DNA from: Candidatus Altiarchaeota archaeon
Lineage (GTDB): Archaea > Altiarchaeota > Altiarchaeia > IMC4 > QMZM01
Direction: 5' to 3'
NCBI GenBank assembly: GCA_038891095.1
Contig: JAWAEV010000001.1
Coordinates: 5,248 to 69,247, forward strand
Length of the DNA stretch: 64,000 bases
The translations under genes were made by a program, and so were the position numbers. A model generated the notes under the pieces. The model made no database searches. It was not told the origin of the DNA and was given only the letters and a program-made list of their open reading frames with translations. Shown here piece by piece: positions 3,975-62,170 of this stretch (its first letter is position 1; each line of letters opens with the position of its first letter).

Positions 3975-4004
3975 TTTATTTGTTTGCTACTGAGATGCTA
4001 ACCA

Positions 4005-5119: not shown

Positions 5120-5884
5120 ATGAAATATAAGATGCCAACCAACACAAAAAATAAAAAAAAGGAAATATTTCCTGGAGTTGAAATTCATGGATTAACACTC
5201 TACTTAAAAAAAGAAAAAGTTCTTGTAATAGGAGACTTACATCTGGGCTATGAAGAAGAACTCAATTCTTTAGGTTTCCTTGTACCTAAATTTCAATACA
5301 GGGAGATTATCACATATCTAAAAAAAATTTTTTCTAAAATTCCTTCTCTTGAGAAAATTGTTATTAATGGTGATTTAAAGCACGAATTTGGTAGGATTTC
5401 CAAACAAGAATGGAACGAAGTCCTTTCTTTTTTAGATTTTTTGAAAAGTAATGTTAACGAAATTTTTTTGATAAAGGGAAATCACGACACAATTCTCGGA
5501 CCTTTAGCTGAAAGAAAAGAATTAAAAGTTTTGGAATATTTCTATATTGCTAATGAGAAAATTTATATTTGCCATGGACATAAAATCCCTGATGATGAAA
5601 ATTTTGAAAGATCTAAGGTTGTTATTATTGCGCATGATCATCCTGCTCTTGGTTTGAGGGAAGGCCTCAGAGTTGAGAAAGTTAAATGCTTTCTGAAAGG
5701 AATGTGGAACGAAAAAATTCTAATTCAAATTCCTTCTTTAAATTTTGTTGTTGAAGGTTCAGATATCTCTCAAGAAAAAATGCTCTCACCATTTATGAAT
5801 GAGATAGAAAATTTTGACATATATTGTATAGAAAGAGAGAATTTATTCTACTTTGGTAAAGTAAAACATATCTATAAACATTAA
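5120..5884 (+). CDS. SbcD/Mre11-related calcineurin-like metallophosphoesterase (archaeal putative phosphoesterase family)
   Basis: Metallophosphoesterase motifs GDLHLG, GDL, GNHD and GH..HDH. The short 254-aa form fits the archaeal SbcD-related family. Confidence 0.6.
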   Translation: MKYKMPTNTKNKKKEIFPGVEIHGLTLYLKKEKVLVIGDLHLGYEEELNSLGFLVPKFQYREIITYLKKIFSKIPSLEKIVINGDLKHEFGRISKQEWNEVLSFLDFLKSNVNEIFLIKGNHDTILGPLAERKELKVLEYFYIANEKIYICHGHKIPDDENFERSKVVIIAHDHPALGLREGLRVEKVKCFLKGMWNEKILIQIPSLNFVVEGSDISQEKMLSPFMNEIENFDIYCIERENLFYFGKVKHIYKH

Positions 5885-6036
5885 AGCCCAATTATACTTT
5901 CCAACGGAAGCACAACAAAAAGAATTAGATTATTTCTTTTTGTGTCTCATCTTTTTTCTTCTTTTCTTAAGTTTATGCTTCCGCATCTTTTGTATTTTTC
6001 TTTTTCTACCGCATGGCATAATTTATTTTAGGAAAT

Positions 6037-6050
6037 TTATAAATAAAAAT
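6037..6050 (+). promoter_or_regulatory. Candidate archaeal TATA box (tttataaata) about 45 bp upstream of the FG-GAP gene start
   Basis: AT-rich TATA-like octamer in an intergenic region. This is positional inference only. Confidence 0.3.
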
Positions 6051-6088
6051 ATATTGTTTTTTTAGATGAAATTACAATTAGTTTACAT

Positions 6089-8266
6089 ATGAAAAAAAAT
6101 TTGCTCGCGCTTGGAATTTTTTACTTTGCATTCCTTCTAATTTTTTCAATTTTTGTTTTTGGAATAGAAGAAGAGCAGTTCAATGAGAAATGGAATTACA
6201 CCACTGGTGGTATGATAACAGATCTATGCATTGGTGATTTTGATAACGATGGTAAAAAAGAAATTGCTACAGTAAAATCAATTGAGACATTAGTTGGCTC
6301 CGGTGGAGATTTTAGAATAGTGAACTCAACTGGGAATTTAATTTGGAAAAAAGATATTGGATGTAAAATTTATTCAATCTTTTGTGAAGATATAGATAAC
6401 GATGGCTATGATGAAATTCTTGTTGGCTCATGCACTCATTTGCATGTTTTCAATTATACTCAAGAAAAAGAATGGCAATTTTTCACTGATCATGGTGCTG
6501 TGAAGATAATTTTTCCTTTTGATTTTGATAATGATGGAAAAAAGGAGTTATTGATTGCTACTACTGACCCAATGTCGAAAAGAAATAACAACATTTACCT
6601 CGTAGATAACAGAGGACAGTTAATATGGAAAAAAAATTTACCTTCTTCTCCAAATTCAATAGATGTCAAGGATATAAATTCTGATGGTTTAAAGGATATC
6701 ATTGTAGCTTCTGGCATTTCATCTATTGGAATTTCTGCATACAAAGGTTGGATTACGGTTTATAATGAAAACGGCACTTTACAATGGGAAGTGAGAATTA
6801 AAAATGGTGCAGAAAGTGTAAAAATTACCGAAATAAATAGGGATAAAAAACCTGAGATAATTGTTGGGTCACTTTATACAATTTACTTGTTTGATAGTAA
6901 TGGAAATGAAAAAAAGCAGTATAATATAAGTGGTCATGCATATGCCTTAGAAGTAATTAATGCCAAAGATGAAATTCTCTTGATCGTAGGAACAAATGAT
7001 CTAATTGCATTAGATTCGAATTTCAAATTTAAGTGGAGTTATAATACTGCTGATGAGGTATATGACATAAAAATTTTTGATATAGACAATGATGGAAATG
7101 AAGAAATTTTTGCCGTTTCTGATAGAGTTTACTTGCTAAGCAATGGAGGTAAATTACTCTGGCAATCTCCAAAAGCAGCGGGGGTGAAAAAAATTGTAAT
7201 TGATGATTTAGAAAATGATAAGTACAATGAGATAATTTTTGGCACTCTTGACGGGAAGATTTATGTATATGAAACAAAAGGGAATGTAAAGGGGAAACTT
7301 GCTGAAGAGAATTTCTTAAAGGCAGAAAAGGCATTTAACGCTGGTAATTATGATAACTCAACCAACTATGCAAAAATTGCTAAGAAACTATATGAAGAGT
7401 TGAATATGAATTCTAAAGCAAAAGAGTGTGATGAGCTGATTAAAAAAATAAATGCAATTATCTCAGAAGATTTAAGAAATAAAAAAGAGGCAGATGAAAA
7501 TTACAACAAATCAATGAATTTTTTTATGAATGAAAATTTCAGTTCTGCATTAACTTTCGCCAGAAAGGCAAAATTGTTGTATTCTGGAATAAAAAAGAAA
7601 ACTCCAGAAATTGAGAAAAACATTGAAAATTGTGATATCATTGTTAAGAATTCTATCGATGGTTTAAAGTTAAGGGCTGCTTTATTATATGAAAATGCTA
7701 CATATTTATACGGAACTAAAAATTATGGACTTTCTTTGAATTTATCAAGAGAGATTTTAGATATTGGAATACTACTCAAAGACAAGAATATTAGCTTAAA
7801 AGCAAATTTAATGATCGCAAATTCTCTGTGCAAAATTTCTGAAATAGAATATAGAGAGAGTAGAATAGAGAGTGCAGTGTTAAATGCAAAAGAGGCGATT
7901 GAAATTTACAATGAGTTAGGGAATGAAACAGCAGGTAATGAAATTTTAGAATGCTCCAAAATTCTTGAGAAAATTGAAAAAAAACAAAGCTATGCAGAAA
8001 AACCAAAGGAAGTTAACATGAGTAATATTACAATAATTCTCATTGTTTTAATTTTAGCAATATTTTTAGCTGTGTTTTTCATTAGAAAAAAACATTATAT
8101 AGTTAGTAAAGATACTACTAAAACTGAAGTCGAAAATAAAGTTGAAGCCGTGGAAATAAAAACAATAGATGAACTAAAAGAAAAATCCGAAAAGAAGGAA
8201 CTTGAACCAATAAAAAAAGATAAGTTTAAAGGTATTGGAAGATCTCTAAAGCCTTTAAAGTTATAA
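6089..8266 (+). CDS. Surface protein with 7 FG-GAP/Ca-binding beta-propeller repeats, a helical TPR-like region, a C-terminal TM anchor and a Lys-rich tail (integrin-alpha-like architecture)
   Basis: N-terminal hydrophobic signal/anchor. Seven spaced DxDxDGxxE loops (DFDNDGKKE, DIDNDGYDE, DFDNDGKKE, DINSDGLKD, INRDKKPE, DIDNDGNEE, DLENDKYNE). TM segment ITIILIVLILAIFLAVFFI followed by a K/E-rich tail. Confidence 0.6.
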   Translation: MKKNLLALGIFYFAFLLIFSIFVFGIEEEQFNEKWNYTTGGMITDLCIGDFDNDGKKEIATVKSIETLVGSGGDFRIVNSTGNLIWKKDIGCKIYSIFCEDIDNDGYDEILVGSCTHLHVFNYTQEKEWQFFTDHGAVKIIFPFDFDNDGKKELLIATTDPMSKRNNNIYLVDNRGQLIWKKNLPSSPNSIDVKDINSDGLKDIIVASGISSIGISAYKGWITVYNENGTLQWEVRIKNGAESVKITEINRDKKPEIIVGSLYTIYLFDSNGNEKKQYNISGHAYALEVINAKDEILLIVGTNDLIALDSNFKFKWSYNTADEVYDIKIFDIDNDGNEEIFAVSDRVYLLSNGGKLLWQSPKAAGVKKIVIDDLENDKYNEIIFGTLDGKIYVYETKGNVKGKLAEENFLKAEKAFNAGNYDNSTNYAKIAKKLYEELNMNSKAKECDELIKKINAIISEDLRNKKEADENYNKSMNFFMNENFSSALTFARKAKLLYSGIKKKTPEIEKNIENCDIIVKNSIDGLKLRAALLYENATYLYGTKNYGLSLNLSREILDIGILLKDKNISLKANLMIANSLCKISEIEYRESRIESAVLNAKEAIEIYNELGNETAGNEILECSKILEKIEKKQSYAEKPKEVNMSNITIILIVLILAIFLAVFFIRKKHYIVSKDTTKTEVENKVEAVEIKTIDELKEKSEKKELEPIKKDKFKGIGRSLKPLKL

Positions 8267-10024
8267 TAAAAATTTTCTTTTCTGATGTTTTAGCAATGAT
8301 GGCTCATATTTCAAAAGCAATTCTTCTTCTTTTATTTTTTCAAGTTTTCTTATTTCTTTTTGTTTTATCTCTGAGAAAAGATATTTATTTCTCTCATAAA
8401 TTTCCAAAAGTTCTGATGTTCTCTCACCACTTTGCATCTCTGGAAATATAACAAAATCTGCTCCTTTCTCATAAAGCTCAAGAGCATTATCAATTGACTC
8501 TGCTCTCACAACAAAAAATGCACCTGAATTTAGCTCTCTAACTTTTTTCAATAGCATTAAGTTATCATCATGTGTAGGAATTGTTGATATCACTAACTCA
8601 GCGCCCTTTAGATTTACCCTTTCTAAAATTTCTAAGTCTTCGATGTCACCGTAAATACAATTTATCCCTTGGGTTAGCAATTTCTTTATTATGTCAGGAT
8701 TATAATCAACTACTAAAAATTTCTTTTTTAGTCTCATTAAAGTTTTCACAATCATATAACCAGTACGATGACACCCAAAAACAATAGTATGATTTTTTAG
8801 AGATTCTGAGATTGATTCAAAATCTTTTTTCTTTGGAATTTTGTTAGAGAAACCAAGAAAAGGAACAAAAATGCGATATAATTTTGATGAATGTATTATC
8901 ATATATGAACTTATCGTCAATGTAATCAATGTCACCCAAGCTATCGAAGAGAGAATATCTTTTTGAATATGCCCAAGTGAAAGTCCTTCTGAAACTAATA
9001 CCAATGAAAATTCAGATACTTGAGCAACAGAAATTGCAGTTAGAAAAGATGTTCTCTTGCTATATCCTAAAAGAGAGGCAATTAAGAACATTATGATTAC
9101 ATTTCCGATTAAAACAAAAAGTGAAAATATAATTACTTCTTCTATAACTAAAGGTTTTATCGAATCATGAATTGTTGCTGAAACTTGCATACCTAAAGAG
9201 GCAAAAAAAATTGTTGCAAAGAAATCTCTCATTGATCTGACTCTACTAACAATTTCTAAATTATATGGAAATGATGCCAATGATAAACCAGCAAGAAATG
9301 CTCCTATGCTGATAGAAAAGCCAAGAAGATATGAGATAAAAGAGAAGACAAAACAAACTGACAAAGCAAATAAAAATAAAAGCTCTAACGACCTTGAGCT
9401 GAATCCTATCAATGGTGGTAAAATAAATCTGCCTATAACTACTGAAATTGAAAAAAATCCAAATCCTTTTACTACAGAGAGTAGCAATGGCACTATAGAA
9501 AAATTTCCTAAATTTGGCAATGCTGCCAATACAACTATTGTTATAACATCCTGAACTAAAAGAATCCCTAAGACAATTTTTCCATGCAAAGTTTGTAACT
9601 CATTTATATCAGAAAGTAATTTCACTACAACAGTTGTCGAACTTATTGTTAATGCAAAGCTAACATAAAATGCTTCTATTTGAGATAAACCAAAAAGAGA
9701 GGATAATAAAAAACCGAAAATAAAGGTAAATAAAATTTGTCCTATTCCACAGGATATTGAAACCCTTCCAACATTCTTTAGCTTTTTAATATCTAACTCC
9801 AAACCAACAAAAAATAGAAGAAATGCTATGCCAAGTTCAGCAAAAATTTTTATAATTTCTTCATTTGTAACTAATCTCAATCCAAAAGGACCAACAACTA
9901 TGCCTGCAATGACATATGCAACTACTAAAGGCTGCTTGAGTATCTTAGCAAAAAAAGCAAATAATGTTGATGAAAATATTATTATGCCTAAATCAAATAA
10001 CAAAAGCATCCCTTGAGCTTCCAT
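8261..10024 (-). CDS. CPA2 (Kef/NapA-type) monovalent cation:proton antiporter with C-terminal RCK/TrkA-N domain
   Basis: About 12 TM helices, then a Rossmann-like TrkA-N segment (HTIVFGCHRTGYMIVKTL...VVDYNPD). Confidence 0.75.
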   Translation of the reverse strand: MEAQGMLLLFDLGIIIFSSTLFAFFAKILKQPLVVAYVIAGIVVGPFGLRLVTNEEIIKIFAELGIAFLLFFVGLELDIKKLKNVGRVSISCGIGQILFTFIFGFLLSSLFGLSQIEAFYVSFALTISSTTVVVKLLSDINELQTLHGKIVLGILLVQDVITIVVLAALPNLGNFSIVPLLLSVVKGFGFFSISVVIGRFILPPLIGFSSRSLELLFLFALSVCFVFSFISYLLGFSISIGAFLAGLSLASFPYNLEIVSRVRSMRDFFATIFFASLGMQVSATIHDSIKPLVIEEVIIFSLFVLIGNVIIMFLIASLLGYSKRTSFLTAISVAQVSEFSLVLVSEGLSLGHIQKDILSSIAWVTLITLTISSYMIIHSSKLYRIFVPFLGFSNKIPKKKDFESISESLKNHTIVFGCHRTGYMIVKTLMRLKKKFLVVDYNPDIIKKLLTQGINCIYGDIEDLEILERVNLKGAELVISTIPTHDDNLMLLKKVRELNSGAFFVVRAESIDNALELYEKGADFVIFPEMQSGERTSELLEIYERNKYLFSEIKQKEIRKLEKIKEEELLLKYEPSLLKHQKRKFLL

Positions 10025-10039
10025 TCTTTTTATTGGGCT

Positions 10040-10528
10040 TTACAAATGAAAAATTTTTGCTTTTAAATTTTTTGTGTCAAGTAATGCTACTGTTTTATTT
10101 CCTGTTAAATATCCGCATGTTTCACCGGGATTTATTATAAGTTTTTTCTTCTCTGCTTTAATTTCTGCCTTATGAGAATGTCCAAGAATTATTATGTCAT
10201 ATTTATTATACTTTATCAACGCTTTTGAGATTTCATCATCAGTACCATGATACAAAGCAATAAATTTTCCATTTTGCTCCAATTCATGAAAATCCTTTAG
10301 CTCACATCCAATTTTTTTATAAACTTCAGCTAAGTGAACTCTATCACCATCATTATTGCCAAAAACTCCTATAAGCTTTGAATTCAAATTTTTAAATTCT
10401 TTTGCTGTAAATGGTGCTACATAGTCTCCAGCATGTAAAACAACTGAAACATTCTGTCTATTAAAAAAATTTACTGCCTTTTTTATTGCATCTAAATTGT
10501 CGTGAGTGTCAGATAATATGCCGATCAT
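10040..10528 (-). CDS. MJ0936/YfcE-family metallophosphoesterase (phosphodiesterase)
   Basis: MIGILSDTHDN...HAGD...GNND...GHSH motif series. 162 aa. Confidence 0.75.
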   Translation of the reverse strand: MIGILSDTHDNLDAIKKAVNFFNRQNVSVVLHAGDYVAPFTAKEFKNLNSKLIGVFGNNDGDRVHLAEVYKKIGCELKDFHELEQNGKFIALYHGTDDEISKALIKYNKYDIIILGHSHKAEIKAEKKKLIINPGETCGYLTGNKTVALLDTKNLKAKIFHL

Positions 10529-10638
10529 TCTTCTTAGATAATTCTCAGATAATTATCTTCTTTACTACTTTAAATACTTTAGAAGAAAGGAAAATTGAAA
10601 CAGCAAAACAAAAAGCAAAATAAGAAAAAATTAAAAGA

Positions 10639-10665
10639 AAAACCGTTAGCTAAACTAACGGTTTT
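10639..10665 (-). terminator. Perfect 11-bp-stem hairpin (AAAACCGTTAG / CTAACGGTTTT, 5-nt loop) followed by a T-run on the minus strand, immediately downstream of MC1
   Basis: Inverted repeat read directly from the sequence. On the transcribed strand it is followed by TTTCTTTTAATTTTTTCTTATTTT. Confidence 0.5.
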
Positions 10666-10683
10666 TAGACTAAAAAGAAATAT

Positions 10684-10974
10684 TTATTTCTTAACTTTTT
10701 CAACCTTCACTTTCTTAACATTTGCTTCCCAGATTTCATCTGGCATCCAAGATGGAGCGTTTTCTGGCTTTTTAACCTTCTTTCGAGAGCCCTTAAACAC
10801 ATGAATTCTCCACATTCCGTCTTTTTTTCTACCATGCTCCCTTAACCTAATGTCTGTATATCCTCTTCTAGCTGCTTTTAAAGCTGCATTTCTTGGTGCT
10901 GTCCCTGTAAAAACAGCCACCTCCTTATTCCCCTCCAAAAGGGAATAATATTTTTTCTTTCCTTTCTTTGCCAT
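10684..10974 (-). CDS. Chromosomal protein MC1 (archaeal non-histone chromatin protein)
   Basis: 96 aa. VFTGTAPRNAALKAARRG...IRLREHGRKK...HVFKG...PENAPSWMPDEIW matches conserved MC1 blocks known from Methanosarcina MC1. Confidence 0.8.
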   Translation of the reverse strand: MAKKGKKKYYSLLEGNKEVAVFTGTAPRNAALKAARRGYTDIRLREHGRKKDGMWRIHVFKGSRKKVKKPENAPSWMPDEIWEANVKKVKVEKVKK

Positions 10975-11193
10975 TTTTCACCACTCTTTTCTTTTATTTA
11001 TTTTTATTTTTTATCATACATATATAAGAAAAAGGAGTATAAAAATAGGCCAACTGTAGGAACACATAAATGTAAGTTTAAATTTTTGTCATGTTATATT
11101 GATAAAGTTCACAAAAATAAAATTTAAATAGAAATGTGAAATTAACATAAAAGTATAGAAACACTGTGGTTTTAACTTATTTTATAAAATTTT

Positions 11194-11931
11194 ATGGATA
11201 TAGAAAAAATAGTTAATTGGATAAGGGAACAAGTTAAAAATGCAAACTCAAAAGGTGTTGTATTAGGCTTATCTGGCGGCATAGATTCTTCAGTCACTGC
11301 TGTTCTCTGCAAAAAGGCCTTTCCTAAAAATACTTTGGCTTTGATAATGCCATGTTTCAGTAACAAAAAAGATATTGAAGATGCAAAATTGATTGCAAAG
11401 AAATTTAAAATTAAATATAAAAAAATTGATTTGGGTTCCACTCTTGAAAAGTTGCTTTATGATATTGATAAAAAGAGATATAACGAAAAATGTGAGAAAA
11501 ATTTAGAAATTGCAAATATGAAAGCAAGATTAAGAATGCTAACTCTTTACTATTTTGCAAATAAGCTGAACTATTTAGTTGTGGGATGTGGAAATAAATC
11601 TGAAATCAAAATTGGTTATTTTACAAAATATGGTGATAGTGCTTGTGATATCATGCCAATAGGAAATTTTCTTAAGAGAGATGTAAAAAAAATTGCAAAA
11701 GAAATTGGAATTCCAAAAGAAATAATTGAAAAACCGCCAAGTGCGGGCTTATGGAAAGAACAGACTGATGAAAAAGAACTTGGGATTTCTTATGATGAGT
11801 TAGACACTGTAATAGAAAAAATTGAAAAAAATGATCTTGAGTGTGTGAATAAAAAAATTCTTAAAAAAGTTCAAGACATGATAAAAAAATCTGAACATAA
11901 AAGGAGGATGCCAAAAATTTTTCTAAGATGA
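11194..11931 (+). CDS. nadE: NH3-dependent NAD+ synthetase
   Basis: PP-loop SGGIDSS. The 245-aa single-domain NadE form. Its stop overlaps the next gene's start (ATGA). Confidence 0.85.
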   Translation: MDIEKIVNWIREQVKNANSKGVVLGLSGGIDSSVTAVLCKKAFPKNTLALIMPCFSNKKDIEDAKLIAKKFKIKYKKIDLGSTLEKLLYDIDKKRYNEKCEKNLEIANMKARLRMLTLYYFANKLNYLVVGCGNKSEIKIGYFTKYGDSACDIMPIGNFLKRDVKKIAKEIGIPKEIIEKPPSAGLWKEQTDEKELGISYDELDTVIEKIEKNDLECVNKKILKKVQDMIKKSEHKRRMPKIFLR

Positions 11932-12842
11932 AAATTCTCGTGACTGGTGGCGCTGGATTTATTGGCTCGCAAATTGTTGATAAATTAGTTGAATTAGGAA
12001 ACTATGTTGTGATTATCGACAATCTCTCAACAGGAAAAAAAGAAAATTTAAACAAGAAGGCAAAATTCTATAAAGCTGATATTTGCTCAGAAAAAATTTT
12101 CGAGATATTTAAAAAGGAAAATTTTGATGTTGTAATTCATCAGGCTGCTCAAACAAGTGTTATTTGCTCAGAAAAGAATCCAGAATTTGATGCAAAAGTT
12201 AATGTTCTTGGCACAATAAATCTTCTTGAATGCTGCAGAAAATTCTCTGTTGAAAAATTTTTATATGCCTCATCAGCTGCGATTTATGGAAACCCAAAAT
12301 ATTTTCCAATTGATGAAGCACACCCAAAAGAACCAATTTCAGTTTATGGTATGAACAAATATGTTGCGGAACTTTACTTAAAATTTTATAATTCAATTTA
12401 TGGGATTAGATATATTTCCTTGAGATATTCAAATGTATATGGTCCAAGACAAAACTATGAGAACGAAAGCGGTGTTGTTACAATTTTTTTGAATAAACTT
12501 ATTAATGGAGAAAAACCAACTATTTATGGCAATGGTTCTCAAACGAGAGATTTCATCTATATTGATGATGTTGTAAATGCAAATATTTTGGCTATTGGAA
12601 AAAAAATTTCTGGAGAGTTTAACATTTCCACAAATAAGGAAACAAGTATTATAGCTCTATACAAAAAAATACAAAAAATTTTAGGGATAGATATCTCTCC
12701 AAAATATGCAAAAGGAAGAAATGTGGAAATTTTCAGAAGCGTTCTTGATAATAGAAAAGCGATTAAGGAACTTGGATGGAAACCAAAAATTTCAATTGAG
12801 GAAGGGTTAAGAAGAACAATAGGTTATATGAAAAAATGCTAA
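11928..12842 (+). CDS. NAD-dependent sugar epimerase/dehydratase (SDR; UDP-glucose 4-epimerase-like), paralog 1
   Basis: N-terminal TGGAGFIGS Rossmann motif and YxxxK (YGMNKYVAE). 304 aa. Confidence 0.8.
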   Translation: MKILVTGGAGFIGSQIVDKLVELGNYVVIIDNLSTGKKENLNKKAKFYKADICSEKIFEIFKKENFDVVIHQAAQTSVICSEKNPEFDAKVNVLGTINLLECCRKFSVEKFLYASSAAIYGNPKYFPIDEAHPKEPISVYGMNKYVAELYLKFYNSIYGIRYISLRYSNVYGPRQNYENESGVVTIFLNKLINGEKPTIYGNGSQTRDFIYIDDVVNANILAIGKKISGEFNISTNKETSIIALYKKIQKILGIDISPKYAKGRNVEIFRSVLDNRKAIKELGWKPKISIEEGLRRTIGYMKKC

Positions 12843-12847
12843 GACTA

Positions 12848-12950
12848 TTTATTTTGTTGTAATAAAAAACTTATGAAAAATCTCAATTTTAAATTTCAAA
12901 ATCAAATTTCTTACTATGAAAATTCTCGTGACTGGTGGCGCTGGATTTAT
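12848..12950. repeat. 103-bp perfect direct repeat, copy A (promoter-like AT-rich leader plus first 35 nt of an epimerase CDS)
   Basis: Identical base for base to 15791-15893. The CDS part (45 nt) is also identical to 11928-11972. Confidence 0.9.
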
Positions 12951-13962
12951 TGGCTCGCATGTTTGCGAGTTTTATGCAAATTCTAACAAAGAGAATGAGA
13001 TCATTTGCTATGACAACCTTTCTAGAGGAACATTACTTAGAAAAAAAATTTCTCAAAGATATAACTTGAATTTTTTGAAAAATTTTTCTAATGTTAAATT
13101 TGTTAGAGGAGATATAAGAAAATTTGAAAATTTAAAGAAAGTTATGAGAGATGCTGAACTTGTGATTCATGCTGCTGCTCAAACTGCTGTTACATCATCA
13201 GTTGAAAATCCAAGGACTGATTTTGAAATAAATGCTTTAGGAACATTTAATGTCTTAGAAGCTGCGAGGCTCTCAAATAATGATCCGGTTGTGATATATT
13301 GTTCAACTAACAAAGTCTATGGTGAAAATGTAAATTCAATCAAAGTGAATGAGCTGGAAAAAAGGTACGAATTTTCTGATAAAAATTTTTCTGAAGGAAT
13401 TCCTGAGAACTTTCCGATAGATGCTAAAGGACATTCACCTTATGGTGTTTCGAAGTTAGCAGGAGACCAATATTGTAGAGACTATTTTGAGGTCTATGGC
13501 TTAAAAACTCTTGTATTTAGAATGAGTTGTATTTATGGCACTCGCCAGTTTGGAGTTGAGGATCAAGGATGGATTGCACATTTTATAATCTCTTCTATTT
13601 TTGAGAGACCTTTAACAATTTATGGTAACGGCAAGCAAGTTAGAGATGTTCTGTATGTCACAGACTTAGTAGAAGCATTCCACTTAGGTTATGAGAATAT
13701 AAACAAATTTAGTGGAGAAGTTTATAATATTGGCGGAGGTAAAACTAACACGCTATCGATCTTAGAACTTATCGAAATTTTAAGAGAATATAACCTAAAT
13801 CCAAATTATAAATTTTCTTCTTGGAGGCCTTCAGACCAGAAAGTTTTCATTTCAGATATTTCAAAAGCAAAAAAAGAACTTTCATGGAAACCAAAGATTT
13901 CAGCCAAGAGAGGGATTAAATTTTTATTTGAATGGGTCAAAGAAAATAAAAATGTCTTCTAA
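12916..13962 (+). CDS. NAD-dependent sugar epimerase/dehydratase (SDR; CDP-paratose/tyvelose epimerase-like), paralog 2
   Basis: TGGAGFIGS and YGVSKLAGD (YxxxK). 348 aa. Confidence 0.75.
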   Translation: MKILVTGGAGFIGSHVCEFYANSNKENEIICYDNLSRGTLLRKKISQRYNLNFLKNFSNVKFVRGDIRKFENLKKVMRDAELVIHAAAQTAVTSSVENPRTDFEINALGTFNVLEAARLSNNDPVVIYCSTNKVYGENVNSIKVNELEKRYEFSDKNFSEGIPENFPIDAKGHSPYGVSKLAGDQYCRDYFEVYGLKTLVFRMSCIYGTRQFGVEDQGWIAHFIISSIFERPLTIYGNGKQVRDVLYVTDLVEAFHLGYENINKFSGEVYNIGGGKTNTLSILELIEILREYNLNPNYKFSSWRPSDQKVFISDISKAKKELSWKPKISAKRGIKFLFEWVKENKNVF

Positions 13963-14638
13963 AATTTCTGTTATAATTCCTGCATACAATGAAGAGGAGA
14001 GTGTTGGAGAAACTATAAAAAGAATCCAAGAAGTGAACTCTGAATATGAGATCATCGTTGTGGATGATGGTTCTAGAGATAAAACAATAGAGATAGCAAA
14101 AAATTCTGGAGCAAAAGTTTTTAAATTTAAAAAAAATCAAGGAAAAGGTGCAGCTTTTAGGAAAGGAATTCAAGAATCTTCTGGAGATATTATAGTTCAA
14201 ATAGATGCTGATTCACAATTTTTGCCAGAGGAGATTCCAAAATTAATTAAACCTTTGATTGAAGGAGAAGCTGATATAACATTTGGTTCTCGTTTTTTAC
14301 CAGGTTCAAGTGTTGAAAAAGGCTCCTTAAGCTTTCGAAACAGAATTGCCAATATAGTAGATTCTTTTCTTGCAAGTTTTTTTTCAGGAATAAAAATCAC
14401 AGATGTTCAAGCAGGATTTAAAGCTTTTACAAGGGATGCTTTAGAAAAGATAAATTTTCAAGAAAATTCCTTTGCTTATGAGCCAGAAATTGCAATTTTA
14501 GCTGGAAAGAGAAAACTTAGAGTGAAGGAAGTGCCTGTGAGTTATAAAGTTAGAAAAGGCGGAATGTCAAACATAAAATTCTTAAGAGACATTTACTTGA
14601 TAATAAAAACTATGATGAAAACATGGTTGTTGAGATGA
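13928..14638 (+). CDS. GT2 glycosyltransferase, dolichol-phosphate sugar (mannose/glucose) synthase-like (DPM1/AglD-like catalytic domain)
   Basis: ISVIIPAYNEEESVGETI...EIIVVDDGSRDKT...DAD (DxD). The soluble 236-aa form has no TM tail. The true start is probably the M at 13952. Confidence 0.75.
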   Translation: MNGSKKIKMSSKISVIIPAYNEEESVGETIKRIQEVNSEYEIIVVDDGSRDKTIEIAKNSGAKVFKFKKNQGKGAAFRKGIQESSGDIIVQIDADSQFLPEEIPKLIKPLIEGEADITFGSRFLPGSSVEKGSLSFRNRIANIVDSFLASFFSGIKITDVQAGFKAFTRDALEKINFQENSFAYEPEIAILAGKRKLRVKEVPVSYKVRKGGMSNIKFLRDIYLIIKTMMKTWLLR

Positions 14639-14907
14639 AAATTTTATATTTGCAAGAGAATGTTCCAAAAAACTTCAAGTTTTATTCATAAGATAGAAAA
14701 TTATAGATATCTGAATTTAAGTACTTTAATCATTGTATACCTTTTAACTCAATATTTCTTGTCTTCGTCATAAATCAAGTCAGCTGGAATAACTCTAGCT
14801 TATTATGTTATGCCTCAGATTGTAAACAACATTGGCGTAACTCGCAATTTGTAGTTCATGGTTTAAACCCATACAAAGTTTGGAAAGAAGAGGGGATAAA
14901 TTTACCT

Positions 14908-15819
14908 TTGCCTTATAGAGCAGATCATCCACCTTTTCTTTATGTTTTAATGCCTATTTTTGTCTGGATTTGGAACAATATTTGGGCCATTATACTTATA
15001 TTCTTCTTTTTTGATTTCTTAAATTTAATTTTAATTTATTCTTTAGCAAAATTTAAAAAAATTTCCTCTTTACTTTATGTATTTTCTCCATCATTGTTTC
15101 GTGGTTTATTATTCTTAGAAGTTGAGATATTTACTATAGCATTTATATTAGCAAGTATTTATTTTTTCTACAGAAAAAGATATTTCCTCTCTACAATAAT
15201 GTTAGCCCTCTCATTTAATCTACAAATTTTTCCAATAGTTTTGTTTCCAGTCTTGTTGCTCAATATGAATTTAATGAGAGAAAATGAAAATAAATTTTTT
15301 CCTAAAGTTGATTATAAAAAAATATTTAGATACTTAATAATTTTTATCTTAACTTCAGTTATATGCCATCTCTTTTTCTTTCCAGAATGGAAAATTTTTT
15401 ATGAATATAGAACTTTTGAGTATACCTTATCACAAAAAGGTACAGGAATTTGGGTGTTATTACAATTGTCACCTTCTAAATTTTATCTACCTATTTTAAT
15501 CATTTCATTAGTCATCTTTTATTTTTTTACTTATATTAAAAATTTAAATATAGAATCAGGTTATTTTCTTGGGAGTTTACTTTTCATTAGTTTGTTCCCA
15601 AAATTCTCAGTTGATCATTTTATTATCATTTCCACATTATTTCTGATTTGGACACAATGGAGTAAAGCAGATGTATTTTTTTGGATTTTTTTCACGGTCG
15701 GAATATTCTTAGAATTTCTTAGTCTTTCAACAATAGGTATTGTTGATAAATTTACAGGAACGCTAATATCTCTTTCAATTTTAATTGGATTTTATTTTGT
15801 TGTAATAAAAAACTTATGA
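14908..15819 (+). CDS. Polytopic membrane protein (GT-C/DUF2029-like?) with a TTG start; possibly N-terminally truncated
   Basis: At least 8 predicted TM helices. The ORF has no in-frame ATG and the first codon is TTG. The in-frame upstream stretch (14812-14907) has no ATG. The last 9 codons are encoded by repeat copy B. Confidence 0.4.
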   Translation: MPYRADHPPFLYVLMPIFVWIWNNIWAIILIFFFFDFLNLILIYSLAKFKKISSLLYVFSPSLFRGLLFLEVEIFTIAFILASIYFFYRKRYFLSTIMLALSFNLQIFPIVLFPVLLLNMNLMRENENKFFPKVDYKKIFRYLIIFILTSVICHLFFFPEWKIFYEYRTFEYTLSQKGTGIWVLLQLSPSKFYLPILIISLVIFYFFTYIKNLNIESGYFLGSLLFISLFPKFSVDHFIIISTLFLIWTQWSKADVFFWIFFTVGIFLEFLSLSTIGIVDKFTGTLISLSILIGFYFVVIKNL

Positions 15820-15893
15820 AAAATCTCAATTTTAAATTTCAAAATCAAATTTCTTACTATGAAAATTCTCGTGACTGGTGGCGCTGGATTTAT
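15791..15893. repeat. 103-bp perfect direct repeat, copy B
   Basis: Identical to 12848-12950. Confidence 0.9.
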
Positions 15894-16971
15894 AGGATCT
15901 TTTTTAGTTGATAAACTGATTGATAAAGGTCATGAAGTTAGGATTTTTGATAATTTAGAAGAGCAGGTACATCAAGGAAAAATTCCTGATTACTTGAATA
16001 AAAAAGCTGAATTTATTAAAGGTGATGTTCTTGAGTATAATGCTTTAAAGGAAGCAATTAAAGATTGCGAAGTTATTTTTCATGAAGCTGCGATGGTTGG
16101 AGTTGGTCAATCTCAATACCAACCAAAAAAATATGTTGATGCTAACATTAGCGGAACTGCGAATTTATTAGATATTCTTGTAAATGAAGAGCATAATGTG
16201 AAAAAATTGATTGTTGCATCATCAATGTCAATCTATGGTGAGGGTAGCTATGAATGTGAAAATTGCGGCGTTATTGCTCCTGAATTAAGAAGTGAGGAAC
16301 AAATGAAAAAAAATGATTGGGAAGTTCATTGCCCGAAATGCAAAAAAATTTTAAAGCCAATTCCGACAAATGAAGAAAAACCTTTACAAAGTAACTCAAT
16401 CTATGCAATAACTAAAAAAACTCAAGAAGAAATGTGCCTTAATATTGGTAAAACTTATTCTTTGCCAGTAGTTGCTCTTCGCTATTTTAATGTATTTGGT
16501 CCAAGGCAAAGTTTAAGTAACCCCTACACAGGAGTTGTTGCAATTTTCCTTAGCAGAATAAAAAACAATAATCCACCATTAATTTTTGAGGATGGTCTAC
16601 AAAGTAGAGATTTCATTTCTGTGCATGATATTGTTGAAGCAAATATTTTAGCAATGGAAAAAAATTCGGCAAATTATGAGAGCTTTAATGTTGGTTCTGG
16701 AAAAAGGATAACAATACTTGAAATAGCAAATATGTTAATTAAACTCCAAAATTCAAATGTTAAGCCAGAAGTAGTTGGAAAATTTAGAAAAGGGGATGTA
16801 AGACATTGCTTTGCAGATATTTCTAAAATTCAGAGAAAACTTGGTTTCAAGCCAAAATTTTCTTTTATTGATGGAATAAAAGAGCTGATATCATGGAGTG
16901 AAAAAGTGAAAGCGTATGATATGGTTGAGAAGGCAACTCAGGAACTGAAAGAAAAAGGATTACTTTCATAG
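15859..16971 (+). CDS. NAD-dependent sugar epimerase/dehydratase (SDR) paralog 3 with an inserted CxxC...CxxC zinc-ribbon-like segment
   Basis: TGGAGFIGS. Catalytic Ser region SSMSIYGEG, then a roughly 45-aa insert (CENCG...HCPKCKK) before YAITK (YxxxK). Confidence 0.75.
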   Translation: MKILVTGGAGFIGSFLVDKLIDKGHEVRIFDNLEEQVHQGKIPDYLNKKAEFIKGDVLEYNALKEAIKDCEVIFHEAAMVGVGQSQYQPKKYVDANISGTANLLDILVNEEHNVKKLIVASSMSIYGEGSYECENCGVIAPELRSEEQMKKNDWEVHCPKCKKILKPIPTNEEKPLQSNSIYAITKKTQEEMCLNIGKTYSLPVVALRYFNVFGPRQSLSNPYTGVVAIFLSRIKNNNPPLIFEDGLQSRDFISVHDIVEANILAMEKNSANYESFNVGSGKRITILEIANMLIKLQNSNVKPEVVGKFRKGDVRHCFADISKIQRKLGFKPKFSFIDGIKELISWSEKVKAYDMVEKATQELKEKGLLS

Positions 16972-18519
16972 TTTACTTTCAACTCTTTTCATAAGTAAAT
17001 TTGTAATGCGTAGAGAAATTTCTCTTGGAAATTTTAACTTTCTCAAAATAGCAGAGATTATTAAAACATCCTCTATCTTAAGCGCTTTAAATAACAGCAG
17101 AAATATTGAATAGGATAATGCCAAAAAAATTCCTGATGTTGTAAGAGAGAGTAAAGAATCCTGAATTAACTTCTTTGTTATTAGAACTATTGGTAAAGTT
17201 AAAAAAGCTGAAATTAAAACTTTCGATACTCTAGAAGAGGAAATTTTTATTTTTATTATTTTTTTAGTTTCAGAATATGAAAGCAAAAGCATTAATAAAG
17301 AGGATAACACTGTGGCAATTGCAGCACCCTCAATTTTTAATATAGGTATTAATAGTAGATTCGCAATTACATTAAAAACAGAGGCTATTCCTTTGATAGA
17401 TGCAACTTTTTTTGGATTTCCAGAAGAGCTCAATATTGTTGTGAATAAACTATCTATTCCATATAAAAACATTGAAAATGCCATTATTTGAAATGCCAAA
17501 GCACCTTCTTCATATTCTCCTCTAAATAAAACAACTAAAATTTCTCTTGGAAAAGAGATAAAAACGGTGAAAATAGGTATAAAAAAAAGAAAGAAATTCT
17601 CCAAGAGATACGAGGATAATTTAGCTGCACCTTCTAAGTCTTTTCTACCGAAATGTTCTGTAATTATCGGAGTAAAAATTGCAAGAAATGCTCCAAAGAA
17701 AATTAGCTCTACAGCAGCAGTTAGATTTGCAATGTAGTAAACTCCCAAAGCAGAAAAACCAACAAAAATTCTTATCATGAACATATCTGCCCAGCCAAGA
17801 ATATTATCTGCTGTTGAAGTCAATGAAAGTGGAAGTCCAAATTTAAAAAATTTTTTTGTTAAATCAAAACTAAACTTTCCATCAAGTCCAAATTTTTTTA
17901 GAACATAAATAGCAGATAACAAAGTTGGGAGTAGAACTGACATAGTTAAGACGAAAACAACATTTTGTATTGAAATAGAAATTCCAAAGATGATAAGGAG
18001 TGCAATAAAAATTGGTCTAAAAATTTCTAAAAGCAATCCAAATAACCTTGATATATGAGGCCTTCTAAAGCCAGAAATAACAGAATTGAAAAAAAGGTAA
18101 AAAGAAAAAACTATAAAAAGAAAACAAACAAGTAAAAATTCTTCTCTCTTCAATGAAAGAAAATTTGGAAAGAAGTTATTTAAGAATAAAAAAATGGATA
18201 AAGATGGAAGAATTAGAAGTATTACTAAAATTATACCTGTATATAAAGAAGAATTAACCTTTTCTTTATCACCTCTGCCACGATAGAATGCAATATATCT
18301 AGAAACAGAAGCAGGTATGCCAAAGAGTAGTATATGAGCAGAGAAGGTTACAATCCCCCAAGCTAATGTGAAAATTCCATAGTTTTCAGTTGAGATGTAT
18401 TTTGTTAGAATCATATTAAACAGCCAACCAGCAAATTTACCAAGAATACTAAGAGATAGTATAAAAATTCCTGTTTTCAATATAATCTTGTTTAACTTTT
18501 CGAAATTTTCTTGTGGCAT
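16966..18519 (-). CDS. Wzx-like oligosaccharide flippase (MOP superfamily polysaccharide biosynthesis protein)
   Basis: 517 aa with about 14 TM helices and MATE/Wzx-like topology. Located in a glycan gene cluster. Confidence 0.7.
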   Translation of the reverse strand: MPQENFEKLNKIILKTGIFILSLSILGKFAGWLFNMILTKYISTENYGIFTLAWGIVTFSAHILLFGIPASVSRYIAFYRGRGDKEKVNSSLYTGIILVILLILPSLSIFLFLNNFFPNFLSLKREEFLLVCFLFIVFSFYLFFNSVISGFRRPHISRLFGLLLEIFRPIFIALLIIFGISISIQNVVFVLTMSVLLPTLLSAIYVLKKFGLDGKFSFDLTKKFFKFGLPLSLTSTADNILGWADMFMIRIFVGFSALGVYYIANLTAAVELIFFGAFLAIFTPIITEHFGRKDLEGAAKLSSYLLENFFLFFIPIFTVFISFPREILVVLFRGEYEEGALAFQIMAFSMFLYGIDSLFTTILSSSGNPKKVASIKGIASVFNVIANLLLIPILKIEGAAIATVLSSLLMLLLSYSETKKIIKIKISSSRVSKVLISAFLTLPIVLITKKLIQDSLLSLTTSGIFLALSYSIFLLLFKALKIEDVLIISAILRKLKFPREISLRITNLLMKRVESKL

Positions 18520-18555
18520 ATCTTAATATTTTATCTAACAGGATATAAATTAATT

Positions 18556-19515
18556 ATGCCGAGAATTTCTGTAATAATTCCAGCATACAATGAAGAGAAA
18601 TACATTTCAAGATGTTTAGATTCCTTATTGAAGCAAACTTATGAAGATTTTGAGATTATAGCGATAGATGATGGTAGTAAAGATAAAACCTCAGAGATCC
18701 TGAAAAGTTATGAAAAAAAATACAAAAAAATAAAGGTTTTGTCTCAAGAGCATAAAGGTCCTGGAGAAGCCAGAAATTTTGGAGCAAAAAAAGCGATTGG
18801 TGAGATTCTCATTTTTGTTGATGCTGATATGGAGTTTGATAAGGATTATGTGAAAAATTTAACAAAACCGATATTAGAAGGAAAGTGCATAGGAACAACA
18901 CATGCTTATGAATATGTAGCTAATAAAGAGAATATCTGGGCAAGATGCTGGGGAACGGCGAACAGAAGTAAAATAGATGAAAATGCTGTTGAATCCAGAT
19001 TTTTCAGAGCAATATTAAAGGAGGAATTATCAAATGTTGGTTTCTTTGAGCCAAGAACAGGATATTTTGACGATTCTAACACTTTTAAGAAAATTAACAA
19101 AAAAGGATTAGTTGTGAGAGATGCTATCTGCTATCATTACAATCCTTCTTCTTTAGCCGAAGTTTTTTTTCATTCTGCTTGGATTGGCGGTTCTGTGCTC
19201 ATTGAGTTAAAAAACAATCTGAGAAGACTTAAAAAACCCAAGTTTTTTTTACCAGTTGTGACAATGTCGTTTCTATTGATTTTTGGCATTTTTTTTAAAC
19301 AGAAATTGTTAGAAATACTTCTAATTTCATCTTTTTTGATGATAATGCTACTGACGCTAAACAGAGTAGTTAAAGAAAAATATGTAAATTATCTGCTATT
19401 CTTACCAATTTTTTACATTGTAAAATTTTTCGGGTTGATTTATGGTGCTATAAGACAGATTCCAAACATAATCATTAAAAAAATTCATGGTTTAGAGCTT
19501 GTATATAAATACTAA
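18556..19515 (+). CDS. GT2 glycosyltransferase with C-terminal TM segments
   Basis: ISVIIPAYNEEKYISRCLDSLLKQTYEDFEIIAIDDGSKDKT and DAD. The ATG at 18556 is preferred over the TTG at 18511. Confidence 0.8.
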   Translation: MPRISVIIPAYNEEKYISRCLDSLLKQTYEDFEIIAIDDGSKDKTSEILKSYEKKYKKIKVLSQEHKGPGEARNFGAKKAIGEILIFVDADMEFDKDYVKNLTKPILEGKCIGTTHAYEYVANKENIWARCWGTANRSKIDENAVESRFFRAILKEELSNVGFFEPRTGYFDDSNTFKKINKKGLVVRDAICYHYNPSSLAEVFFHSAWIGGSVLIELKNNLRRLKKPKFFLPVVTMSFLLIFGIFFKQKLLEILLISSFLMIMLLTLNRVVKEKYVNYLLFLPIFYIVKFFGLIYGAIRQIPNIIIKKIHGLELVYKY

Positions 19516-19516
19516 A

Positions 19517-20575
19517 ATGCCAAAATTATCAGTAGTTATATTAAATTGGAATGGAAGCCATTATACTATTCCATGTATAAAATCCTTGCTAAATTCCTCA
19601 TTTCAAGATTTTGAAATTGTACTAGTGGACAATGGCTCTGAGAGAAAGGATATTAAAGCTATAGAAAATGAATTTGAAGGAAATGAAAAAATAAAAATTA
19701 TAAAGAATAGTGAGAACAAAGGCTTTGCTGAAGGCAATAATATCGGCGTAAGAAATTCCTCTCCTGAAAGTAAATATGTTCTACTGCTGAATAATGATGC
19801 TGTTGTAAAGAAAGATTACCTAAAGGAGATGGTTGAAGCAATTGAAAGTAATAGTAGCATAGGAGCAGTTGGCATTGGTTATAGACCAAATTCAAAAGAT
19901 GTGTTGCTGCATACTCTCTCTTTAGTTGGCTTTGATGTTGTTTATTATAACGAAAAATTTGTAAATGAGGGCATTTATCCAAAATTATATATCTCTGGAG
20001 CAAGATTTATGTTCAATAAATCTCTTATCAAAGAACCTTTTGATCCAGAGTATTTTATTTATTGCGAAGATGTCTATTTAGGTTGGTTAATTTGGCTTAA
20101 AGGTTATAAAGTAATTGCAAAACATACAAAAAATCCTGAAGCAAGAATGATTCACTATGGTGAGCATGTATTGCAAAAGAAAAAATCTTCTTTTTCAGTT
20201 TTCTTAGGAACAAGAAATAGACTTCTTAACATTTTTCTTTTCTATGAATTAAGAACTTTAATAAAATTATTGCCACTAATCTTCATAGCATATTTTATAT
20301 ATTTAATTTCAGAACCAAAATTCATTCTAACAAGAATGAAAGCATATCTTTGGTTCCCTACTAACTTTAAAAAAATTTTAGAAAAAAGAAAAAAAATTCA
20401 AATGCAAAGAAAAGTTCCTGATGAGGAAATTATAAAAGTGATGAGTTGTAAATTCAAAAGCTATTATGATGTGAAAAATCCTTTTTTTAGAGGAGTTATA
20501 ACGTTGATAAATAAAGTTTTTTATGTGTATTGCAAAATGGTTAATTTAAAAACAATAGATATGATTATTTTTTAG
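19517..20575 (+). CDS. GT2 glycosyltransferase (rhamnosyl/galactosyltransferase-like)
   Basis: LSVVILNWNGSHYTIPCIKSL...FEIVLVDNGS...NND. The start at the M 2 nt after the upstream stop is preferred. Confidence 0.75.
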   Translation: MPKLSVVILNWNGSHYTIPCIKSLLNSSFQDFEIVLVDNGSERKDIKAIENEFEGNEKIKIIKNSENKGFAEGNNIGVRNSSPESKYVLLLNNDAVVKKDYLKEMVEAIESNSSIGAVGIGYRPNSKDVLLHTLSLVGFDVVYYNEKFVNEGIYPKLYISGARFMFNKSLIKEPFDPEYFIYCEDVYLGWLIWLKGYKVIAKHTKNPEARMIHYGEHVLQKKKSSFSVFLGTRNRLLNIFLFYELRTLIKLLPLIFIAYFIYLISEPKFILTRMKAYLWFPTNFKKILEKRKKIQMQRKVPDEEIIKVMSCKFKSYYDVKNPFFRGVITLINKVFYVYCKMVNLKTIDMIIF

Positions 20576-21831: not shown

Positions 21832-22995
21832 TTAAAGCACGCTCTCAAAAAAATCAAATATTTCCCTTGTCACAATTTTCCAATCATATCTTTTTGCTGT
21901 TTTTTTTGCAGTTTTACCTAATTCCCTTCTCAATTTTTCTGATTCTATTAATTTAGATACTGCATTGACAATCTCATCCGAACTATATCTCGGGATTATC
22001 AACGCGTCCTTATTATTTGTAAGATACTCCTCAACGCCTATTATGTCTGAAATAATTATTGGTAAACCAGAAGCCATTGCCTCTAGAATAGTATTTGGAA
22101 AACCCTCATTCAATGAGGGATATAAATACAGATCTGATGCTGCATAATATTTTGGGATATGCTCCCTTGGAACATTCCCCACACTTATAATATAGTTAGA
22201 ATACTTATGCGGTAATTTGAGGTTATATTGCATTTGTCCAACGATCATAAATCTGACATCCGGATGTATTTTAAATATCTCAGGCAATGCTTCTTCTATA
22301 AAGCCTGCCCCTTTTACAATAGAAAAACCACCAATAAATGATATAATAGTCTTATCATTAAAATTATATTTTTCTCGAATTATTGAGCCATCTGAAGATT
22401 GAAATTTTTTTATATCTACTCCTGTACAGGGTATATGAACTGGCTTATTCTCTATACTATATTCCTTTTTAAATTCCTGCCATAACCCCTTAGACTGACA
22501 CAAAAATCCATTAGCATTTTTAATACACTTTGCCTCCAATAGATACTGCGGATAAAATTTTACATAGGTCGCTATTCTCTTCATAAGACTAGGATAAAGC
22601 CGATTCCACATTTCTACTTCCAGAGAGATTGGAGTACTTCCAGATCTATATACTAATTTGTGACCTAATCCGGCATATGCACCAAATGATATCCCTAAAA
22701 CTAAATCAAAATTTAATTCTTTCTTTAGTTTTTTTAGTAATTTCTGTGCTCTAATCCCAAAGCTTCTATATTCTATAACTCTGCGAAAAGTTTTAGAATG
22801 AATTATCGGAATTCTATAAATCTCCACATCATTAACAACTTCTCTTTCAGGTTCATTTTTTTCTTTAGAAGTAATTACTACTATATCATGCCCTTGAGTA
22901 AGAGCATTTTTAGAAAATTCTGAGATAAAGTTTGGTATGCCTCCCATACCCTCCCTAAAATACGGAAATGTTATAATAACATTCATACTATTCAA
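21832..22995 (-). CDS. GT4 (GT-B) glycosyltransferase
   Basis: C-terminal EGFPNTILEAMASGLPII signature of retaining GT4 enzymes. Confidence 0.8.
   Translation of the reverse strand: MNSMNVIITFPYFREGMGGIPNFISEFSKNALTQGHDIVVITSKEKNEPEREVVNDVEIYRIPIIHSKTFRRVIEYRSFGIRAQKLLKKLKKELNFDLVLGISFGAYAGLGHKLVYRSGSTPISLEVEMWNRLYPSLMKRIATYVKFYPQYLLEAKCIKNANGFLCQSKGLWQEFKKEYSIENKPVHIPCTGVDIKKFQSSDGSIIREKYNFNDKTIISFIGGFSIVKGAGFIEEALPEIFKIHPDVRFMIVGQMQYNLKLPHKYSNYIISVGNVPREHIPKYYAASDLYLYPSLNEGFPNTILEAMASGLPIIISDIIGVEEYLTNNKDALIIPRYSSDEIVNAVSKLIESEKLRRELGKTAKKTAKRYDWKIVTREIFDFFESVL

Positions 22996-59185: not shown

Positions 59186-62170
<2,985 letters not shown>

Follow-up and report, generated by a model that had tools for sequence, protein, structure and literature searches.

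Two perfectly identical stretches of DNA, each joining the end of one gene to the beginning of another, stand on either side of a three-gene cassette in the surface-glycan gene island of an uncultivated archaeon. How did they arise, and do they do anything for the host? The island lies in a 64,000-nucleotide stretch of contig JAWAEV010000001.1 (positions 5,248 to 69,247) from the Candidatus Altiarchaeota assembly GCA_038891095.1. We refer to this whole stretch as the window; it is archaeal, has a G+C content of 31.5%, and its glycan island begins with a region holding three genes for epimerases of the short-chain dehydrogenase/reductase (SDR) type, here called epi1, epi2 and epi3. The cassette consists of epi2, a gene for a family 2 glycosyltransferase (GT2) and a gene for a membrane protein that is probably a GT-C-type glycosyltransferase (the GT-C gene), and epi3 follows directly behind it (Table 1). 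We consider the repeat to be, probably, the footprint of a recent ectopic (non-allelic) gene conversion between the paralogous sugar-nucleotide epimerase genes.

The two copies of the repeat, A at 12848-12950 and B at 15791-15893, are in direct orientation, lie 2943 bp apart and match perfectly (103/103), and the position directly outside the tract is a mismatch at both ends. A preliminary description of the locus, made from the sequence, had reported perfect 103-bp direct repeats around a glycan cassette of ~2.9 kb, and this is borne out. Together with the shared epimerase starts, the pair makes up the only exact repeats of 25 nt or longer in the window. The coding part of the repeat, a 35-nt start (ATGAAAATTCTCGTGACTGGTGGCGCTGGATTTAT), is found exactly three times, at 11928, 12916 and 15859, i.e., at the beginning of each epimerase gene; in shuffled sequences 0 matches are expected even with three mismatches allowed. 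The 40-nt upstream part occurs exactly twice. The preliminary description had extended the identity between epi1 and epi2 to 45 nt and had assigned the promoter to all three paralogs. The 35-nt start common to the three genes stands, the epi1/epi2 identity is 44 nt long (11928-11971), and the promoter module belongs to two genes only. The start of epi1 has no copy of it and instead overlaps the stop of nadE in an ATGA, i.e., it is translationally coupled to nadE.

Past the shared start the three epimerases part quickly. The proteins are 30-34% identical overall, in agreement with the strong divergence originally described, and the nucleotide identity of the genes is down to the random level within ~60 nt. 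The shared start is also written in rare synonymous codons, with CTC, GTG, GGC and TCG making up 7%, 13%, 16% and 3% of their respective families. Given the shared peptide, and with the codon usage of this window, identical codons at codons 2-11 have a probability of ~8e-5 for each pair of genes and ~2.5e-8 for all three. Only 29-31 of 45 nt are common to two further SDR genes of the window that encode the same VTG-AGFIGS motif. The sharp borders of the tract, the rare codons shared within it and the divergence outside it show that the repeat is real and far beyond chance.

The upstream part of the repeat has a polarity. The first base of the repeat is base 2 of the F386 codon in the GT-C gene, and the first 29 nt of the repeat encode (F)YFVVIKNL followed by the stop, so that copy B does supply the final codons of the membrane-protein gene, as the preliminary description had it. 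At this place ten GT-C homologues read GFY-hydrophobic-...-L, and F386 and Y387 are invariant in what is a conserved C-terminal helix. Copy A starts 5 nt past the epi1 stop, and there the same 29 nt are attached to no gene. Because copy A carries this orphan GT-C tail, its upstream part must have been copied from sequence of the B type; the upstream 68 nt are thus, to judge from gene context, native to copy B, and copy A reads as a relic. Donor and recipient can be told apart in this way for the upstream 68 nt only, the GT-C tail being native in B and orphaned in A.

The nearest relative that we found for epi1 lies on a 2.4-kb Logan contig (L018; loci fetched for comparison carry L numbers), which serves as an outgroup. 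It aligns to window positions 11578-13953 with 79% nucleotide identity, and its products are 78% (nadE), 75% (epi1) and 83% (epi2) identical to those of the window in amino acid sequence. The genes are in the same order, nadE-epi1-epi2-GT2, with an epi1-epi2 spacer of 34 nt as against 73 nt in the window. Homology of the 34-nt spacer with the window spacer was considered and rejected (alignment score 18; shuffles 17.3 +/- 3.2; p = 0.42). The epi1 and epi2 starts have 36 of 45 nt in common in the outgroup, the first 17 nt being identical, compared with 44 of 45 in the window. Since the outgroup has the cassette beside epi1 and has no repeat, the spacer and gene start were overwritten by the repeat at a later time, and the repeat is hence a derived state in the lineage of the window. 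That the cassette already adjoined epi1 also argues against its insertion as the origin of the repeat.

More distant relatives agree. Orthologues of epi1, epi2 and epi3 are without the module in every related contig examined. Those of epi2 (L005, L007, L009-L011, L013) and epi3 (L013, L014, L016) have different DNA upstream and use different synonymous codons. A 23-nt core of the shared start has no copy in the other fetched loci except in a second metagenome-assembled genome (MAG) described below, and an exact-pattern scan with a 32-nt core of the module gave 0 matches in metagenome contigs of the Joint Genome Institute (JGI) and 0 in IMG/VR. When 14 related loci were compared with themselves, no locus outside the two near-identical strains showed such repeats. 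Look-ups of the exact epi1 and epi3 proteins led to the second MAG alone and to no contig with an alternative junction, and that of epi2 returned no match, owing to a single amino-acid difference. Two scans of the GTDB species representatives, one with the GT-C protein and one with nadE, turned up no close relative. The preliminary description had left a choice between recent gene conversion and a mobile regulatory module, and had set both against an old duplication. A mobile regulatory module is not supported: the window, the other fetched loci (bar the second MAG), the JGI contigs and IMG/VR all lack additional copies, and the outgroup spacer is unrelated. Recent gene conversion, rather than old duplication, is what the data favor, with an identity that spans synonymous and non-coding sites, ends sharply, is absent in orthologues and includes an orphan GT-C tail.

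The second MAG is assembly GCA_038850485.1, in which contig JAWCLT010000018.1 (L001) encodes the exact epi1 and epi3 proteins. Over 14.7 kb, corresponding to window positions 5862-20532, the two strains are 99.4% identical and differ by 83 substitutions and 4 indels. The contig carries the same repeat pair and all three shared starts at the corresponding places. The density of single-nucleotide differences between the strains is 0.70% in the cassette and ~0.53% in the flanks, which is not a meaningful difference.

We propose the following history. The source would be the GT-C/epi3 junction (copy B), comprising the last 29 nt of the GT-C gene, the 39-nt spacer and the first 35 nt of epi3. An event primed in the coding sequence of the Rossmann motif, which is ~80% identical between the paralogs in the outgroup, would have copied these 103 bp over the spacer and start of epi2, leaving the orphan GT-C tail just past epi1. 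In a second, short tract the first 44 nt of epi1 and epi2 would have been made identical, which would bring the number of non-reciprocal exchanges to at least two. Both exchanges would be younger than the separation from the L018 lineage and older than the divergence of the two sequenced strains. As the mechanism we infer homology-primed copying with a non-homologous left end.

Several points weigh against this history. The left end of the tract has neither flanking homology nor obvious microhomology, so that the account requires a one-sided or template-switch event, a simple two-sided conversion being insufficient. For the coding part of 35-44 nt the evidence on the direction of transfer is conflicting, with codons 12-13 favoring epi2 as the donor to epi1 and codon 14 favoring the reverse. 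The polarity appears to hold on the strength of the relic argument and of one 2.4-kb outgroup contig, which ends before the GT-C/epi3 junction. Among the four repeat copies in the two strains there are 0 differences where ~1.2 would be expected (P ~0.3, not significant); this fits a recent event and is also compatible with ongoing homogenization or selection.

Ectopic gene conversion between prokaryotic paralogs, and the concerted evolution that comes with it, is exemplified by tufA and tufB in enterobacteria. The repeat described here resembles such cases in having a sharp, perfect tract that includes synonymous sites, is lineage-specific and is absent in orthologues. It differs in that the tracts are very short (103 and 44 nt), cross a gene boundary and have homology on one side only, and in that the paralogs are only ~30% identical as proteins. 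Gene conversion in archaea is the subject of a review (Soppa, 2011, as cited in PMC7002104), and our literature search found no prior description of this locus or of gene conversion in a glycan island in Altiarchaeota. The process, short-tract ectopic gene conversion in a polysaccharide island, is a known one, and the locus is a well-resolved new instance of it in a little-studied archaeal lineage. Read in this way, it offers a clean and datable example of very short-tract ectopic conversion in uncultivated Altiarchaeota. The conversion would have carried a complete promoter and start signal to a paralog, with the result that a three-gene glycan operon and a separate epimerase gene now have the same sequence there. 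It would be further evidence that recombination at conserved 5' motifs of SDR and GT2 paralogs reshapes the surface-glycan islands of archaea. A new kind of system is not established by this finding, as the repeat is lineage-specific and no switching was observed.

The promoter-like part of the module deserves separate mention. Each copy contains the TATA-like motif TTTTAAATTT at a spacing from the ATG that would fit a leaderless or near-leaderless archaeal transcript. If so, the epi2-GT2-GT-C operon and epi3 would now be served by identical promoters and identical starts of the leaderless type. A positional scan for TATA-like hexamers upstream of 26 genes of the window did not establish a genome-wide leaderless pattern; these genes are too few and too AT-rich, so leaderless expression is something that we infer from the spacing of the motif. 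Two further candidate functions were tried and rejected. The module is not a structured RNA, riboswitch or known RNA family, with a folding z-score of +1.43 (less structured than shuffles) and no credible Rfam match. Nor is it an antisense or second-site target within the window, where neither the 35-nt start nor the 40-nt upstream part has a complementary copy at up to three mismatches.

Other explanations of the repeat have to be weighed against gene conversion. The suspicion of an assembly artefact, i.e., that a chimeric join or collapsed strain variation produced the repeat or the gene order, arises because the source is a MAG. Without repeat-spanning reads, the arrangement epi1-repeat-epi2...GT-C-repeat-epi3 uses the same assembly graph nodes as a deletion chromosome plus a circle. 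The preliminary description had named an artefact beforehand as a finding that would refute it. However, the second, independently assembled MAG, 83 substitutions and 4 indels away, has both copies at the same places, and misjoins reuse pre-existing repeats rather than making them. At 103 bp, the repeat is also exceeded in length by ordinary sequencing reads and by the large k-mers that common assemblers use. With the structure recovered in both assemblies, whose consensus sequences differ, an artefact is extremely unlikely. The repeats might otherwise be the joints of a mobile cassette, in which a circular epi2-GT2-GT-C unit was inserted by a Campbell-type crossover or a site-specific recombinase and its attachment sequence was duplicated. 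Direct repeats do flank a compact three-gene unit, and each repeat spans from the 3' end of the GT-C gene to the 5' end of an epimerase gene, which is exactly the joint of a circularized unit. The circularly permuted order in locus L013 (see below) points the same way. Nevertheless, the outgroup has epi1, epi2 and GT2 adjacent with a shorter and different spacer and no repeat. All open reading frames between 6 and 24 kb are accounted for and none is an integrase, transposase or other recombinase, and the sole tRNA gene of the window, at 62298, is no target. The module is absent from IMG/VR and the JGI metagenome contigs, and the repeat ends show neither terminal inverted repeats nor a target-site duplication. 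We rejected the attachment-site reading on three of these grounds (no recombinase, no tRNA target, and an outgroup cassette without the repeat) and regard a mobile cassette as very unlikely. Selection on a shared regulatory unit, comprising the promoter and leaderless start under a common regulator or as an antisense target, could also have held the copies identical. This would suit the TATA-like box at -29 to -20 of both ATGs with its unstructured start region, which fits a leaderless expression signal, the common start of three genes of one pathway class, and the somewhat raised identity of the epi1 and epi2 starts already present in the outgroup. Yet the orthologues have different promoters and codons, and the identical stretch includes 29 nt of foreign coding sequence with no evident role downstream of epi1. 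The window holds no complementary sequence and no Rfam family matches, as noted above, and selection cannot make identity at every synonymous site without copying. We think it improbable that selection accounts for the repeat.

The remaining question is whether the repeat, whatever its origin, works as a deletion/duplication switch. In this reading recurrent recombination between the repeats would excise or amplify the 2.9-kb cassette and so toggle a surface decoration that depends on a dolichyl-phosphate (Dol-P) sugar, with epi3 still expressed from an unchanged promoter sequence. Being a statement about function, this reading can coexist with an origin by gene conversion. The direct orientation and perfect identity over 103 bp would allow it; the predicted deletion product keeps the promoter and an intact epi3, with epi3 fused to the promoter of copy A, and the predicted excised or duplicated unit keeps intact epi2, GT2 and GT-C 3' end. 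The unit is self-contained and is kept as a trio in several lineages and in varying contexts. Recombination between direct repeats is known to excise DNA in archaea: engineered direct repeats recombine in Thermococcus kodakarensis with loss of the intervening DNA (PMC3370424), and in Halobacterium salinarum populations copies of an insertion sequence (IS), ISH3C, mediate deletions (PMC7002104). Against a switch, both known strains carry the cassette, no deletion or circle junction contig appeared among the exact-protein look-ups of epi1 and epi3, and the 32-nt core of the module is absent from the JGI metagenome contigs. Neither the outgroup nor 12 other related loci have the repeat, which is thus not conserved with the cassette; this indicates a one-off event rather than a conserved design. 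In the window strain the cassette is knocked out by two indels in the GT-C gene and not by a repeat-mediated deletion. A switch is therefore unlikely, and the repeats would rather play a passive part, as a substrate on which the cassette could now and then be deleted or duplicated. In its strongest form, which we consider quite unlikely, the 103-bp module would be a functional joint at which RadA-mediated excision, re-integration or tandem amplification would turn the decoration off, on or up. The shared promoter and leaderless start would then keep both recombination products expressed, and the module would amount to a promoter-embedded, recombinase-free phase-variation device in an uncultivated archaeon. 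For population data, the finding of the repeat itself predicts four possible junctions across the 103 bp. The Haemophilus influenzae cap locus, which lies between copies of IS1016 and is amplified or deleted by homologous recombination, is the obvious comparison, together with archaeal direct-repeat pop-out. As in these, direct repeats bracket glycan genes here, and the cassette would be lost or duplicated by unequal recombination with no damage to the genes on either side. Unlike the cap locus and IS-mediated deletions, the repeats are 103 bp of promoter and gene ends instead of IS elements of at least 1 kb, and, unlike at cap, we saw no copy-number or presence/absence variant in two strains, the contig look-ups and the JGI scan. 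Gene conversion remains the reading that we prefer for the origin of the repeat.

The cassette itself looks like a glycan decoration unit. The preliminary description listed an epimerase, a Dol-P-sugar synthase-like GT2 and a membrane protein with a TTG start. The composition is broadly right and can be sharpened to a TyvE-like 2-epimerase, a Dol-P-hexose synthase-like GT2 and a GT-C transferase, and the TTG start is an artefact, the open frame being the tail of a broken gene that starts at the ATG at 14635. In the window this gene has a +1 frameshift (an extra A) at 14659 and a -1 frameshift (a missing G) at 14750, so that 91 nt are shifted and a stop is introduced; the open frame resumes only from ~14908. 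The counterpart in the second MAG is intact (L001 8777-9961); it encodes 394 aa and starts at an ATG overlapping the stop of GT2. Because the shifted segment includes residues that are invariant in ten homologues (N27, L36, T38 and R39), the window copy is, as judged from this alignment, a derived and inactive form. In the second MAG a 1-nt deletion (window 18760, L001 ~12901) splits another GT2 gene, GT2b, which occupies 18511-19515 in the window. The broken glycan gene is thus not the same in the two strains, and this suggests strain-level glycan variation by pseudogenization, unless the indels are consensus errors.

The GT-C protein has no NCBIfam match, and the window fragment gives weak Pfam matches (PMT_2/GT87, ~1e-3). 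The AlphaFold (AF2) model of a homologue, P0002 (63% identical), has a mean predicted local distance difference test score (pLDDT) of 82.9. Its best PDB match, and the sole one with E <= 0.001, is glycosylphosphatidylinositol (GPI) mannosyltransferase I bound to Dol-P-Man (template modeling score, TM, 0.66). The next matches are PIG-U, a GPI transamidase subunit of related fold, and then ALG6, ArnT, PimE and ALG3. From the model, the membrane protein is probably a GT-C-fold transferase that uses a lipid-phosphate sugar. Among solved structures, the CDP (cytidine diphosphate)-tyvelose 2-epimerases are nearest to epi2 (PDB 9rl0, E=1.8e-95, and 1orr, E=2.8e-79; residues 1-343 covered). The alignment to this TyvE family runs end to end, and the NCBIfam matches of epi2 are generic SDR models below their cutoffs. 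The NCBIfam matches of the cassette GT2 range from 1e-45 to 1e-23, all under the curated cutoffs, and include AglJ (1.1e-45), a Dol-P-hexose transferase (4.8e-30), an ArnC-type model (1.2e-23) and PpgS. By analogy with the systems described next, the cassette would probably make a modified nucleotide hexose, probably load the hexose onto dolichyl phosphate, and finally, again probably, pass it on to a glycan of the surface, on the outer side of the membrane.

Lipid-phosphate-sugar systems for glycan decoration include GtrB/GtrC of enterobacterial phages, ArnC/ArnT, and AglD/AglS of Haloferax volcanii. The Altiarchaeota cassette has in common with them a polyprenyl/dolichyl-phosphate hexose synthase-like GT2 adjoining a GT-C transferase, for which Dol-P-sugar-dependent enzymes are the top structural matches, and a gene for a nucleotide-sugar modifying enzyme that precedes the GT2. 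It has three genes only and, unlike GtrB/GtrC-type systems, no GtrA-like flippase; a Wzx/MurJ-like flippase is encoded outside it. It also differs in that its GT2 falls below the curated family cutoffs and its GT-C protein has no NCBIfam model and weak Pfam matches. For epi1, the top NCBIfam match is GalE, below the cutoff.

Table 1. Features of the epimerase region of the window (positions in window coordinates).
Feature	Position	Strand	Description
nadE	11194-11931	+	stop overlaps epi1 start (ATGA)
epi1	11928-12842	+	SDR epimerase/dehydratase, 304 aa, GalE-like; Pfam PF01370 4.9e-62
epi1 shared start	11928-11971	+	44 nt identical to epi2, 35 nt identical to epi3; no promoter copy
Repeat copy A	12848-12950	+	29-nt orphan GT-C 3' end (including TGA), 39-nt promoter-like spacer, first 35 nt of epi2
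TATA-like TTTTAAATTT, copy A	12887-12896	+	-29 to -20 from epi2 ATG (~26 nt upstream)
epi2	12916-13962	+	SDR, 348 aa; cassette gene 1; Pfam match
Cassette GT2	13952-14638	+	228 aa; overlaps epi2 stop; PF00535 1.9e-37
GT-C membrane glycosyltransferase gene	14635-15819	+	ATG at 14635 overlaps GT2 stop; predicted pseudogene in the window strain
Repeat copy B	15791-15893	+	last 29 nt of GT-C gene (including stop), 39-nt intergenic promoter-like spacer, first 35 nt of epi3
TATA-like TTTTAAATTT, copy B	15830-15839	+	-29 to -20 from epi3 ATG (~26 nt upstream)
epi3	15859-16971	+	SDR, 370 aa, Cys-rich insertion
Wzx/MurJ-like flippase	16966-18519	-	outside the cassette
Further GT2, methyltransferase and GT4 genes	downstream		glycan island genes

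The trio of TyvE-like epimerase, GT2 and GT-C genes occurs in the same order and in different surroundings in L005, L007, L009-L011, L013 and L018. In L013 (ENA ERZ23498525 scaffold_1117, 191-4305) the order is epi3-epi2-GT2-GT-C, a circular permutation of the epi2-GT2-GT-C-epi3 of the window. At window position ~20522 (L001 ~14663), ~50 nt short of the end of the GT2 gene at 19499-20575, the 99.4% identity of the two strains breaks off abruptly. Past this point the other strain carries a GT4-like gene that is only 25% identical to window 22234-22959. The break looks like a recombination breakpoint at which the distal glycan island was replaced. With this break and the varying contexts of the trio, the island otherwise shows signs of being mosaic and recombination-prone.

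Some short similarities were seen at other gene starts. The GT2 paralogs at window 13963-13996 and 18564-18597 share 32 of 34 nt at their 5' ends. Two GT2 paralogs in L005 (5-58 and 2121-2174) share 52 of 54 nt across the start codon and are random thereafter. These may be weaker traces of the process seen at the epimerase starts. In two JGI samples, contigs L014 (1-142) and L015 (1-142) end at the same base, 141 nt upstream of an epi3 orthologue with 82% identity, and the coincident ends may mark an unresolved repeat at that epi3 promoter.

The archaeal chromatin protein MC1 (PF05854) is encoded at 10684-10974 on the minus strand, immediately before the glycan island, and its gene keeps its relative position in the distant relative L007. 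At its right end the window carries an rRNA operon together with the gene for archaeal RNase P RNA, in the order 16S, tRNA-Ala(TGC), 23S (59208-62126, minus strand) and RNase P RNA (58898-59171, minus strand). The RNase P RNA gene follows the 23S gene at a distance of 36 nt and with the same orientation, at the usual place of the 5S gene.

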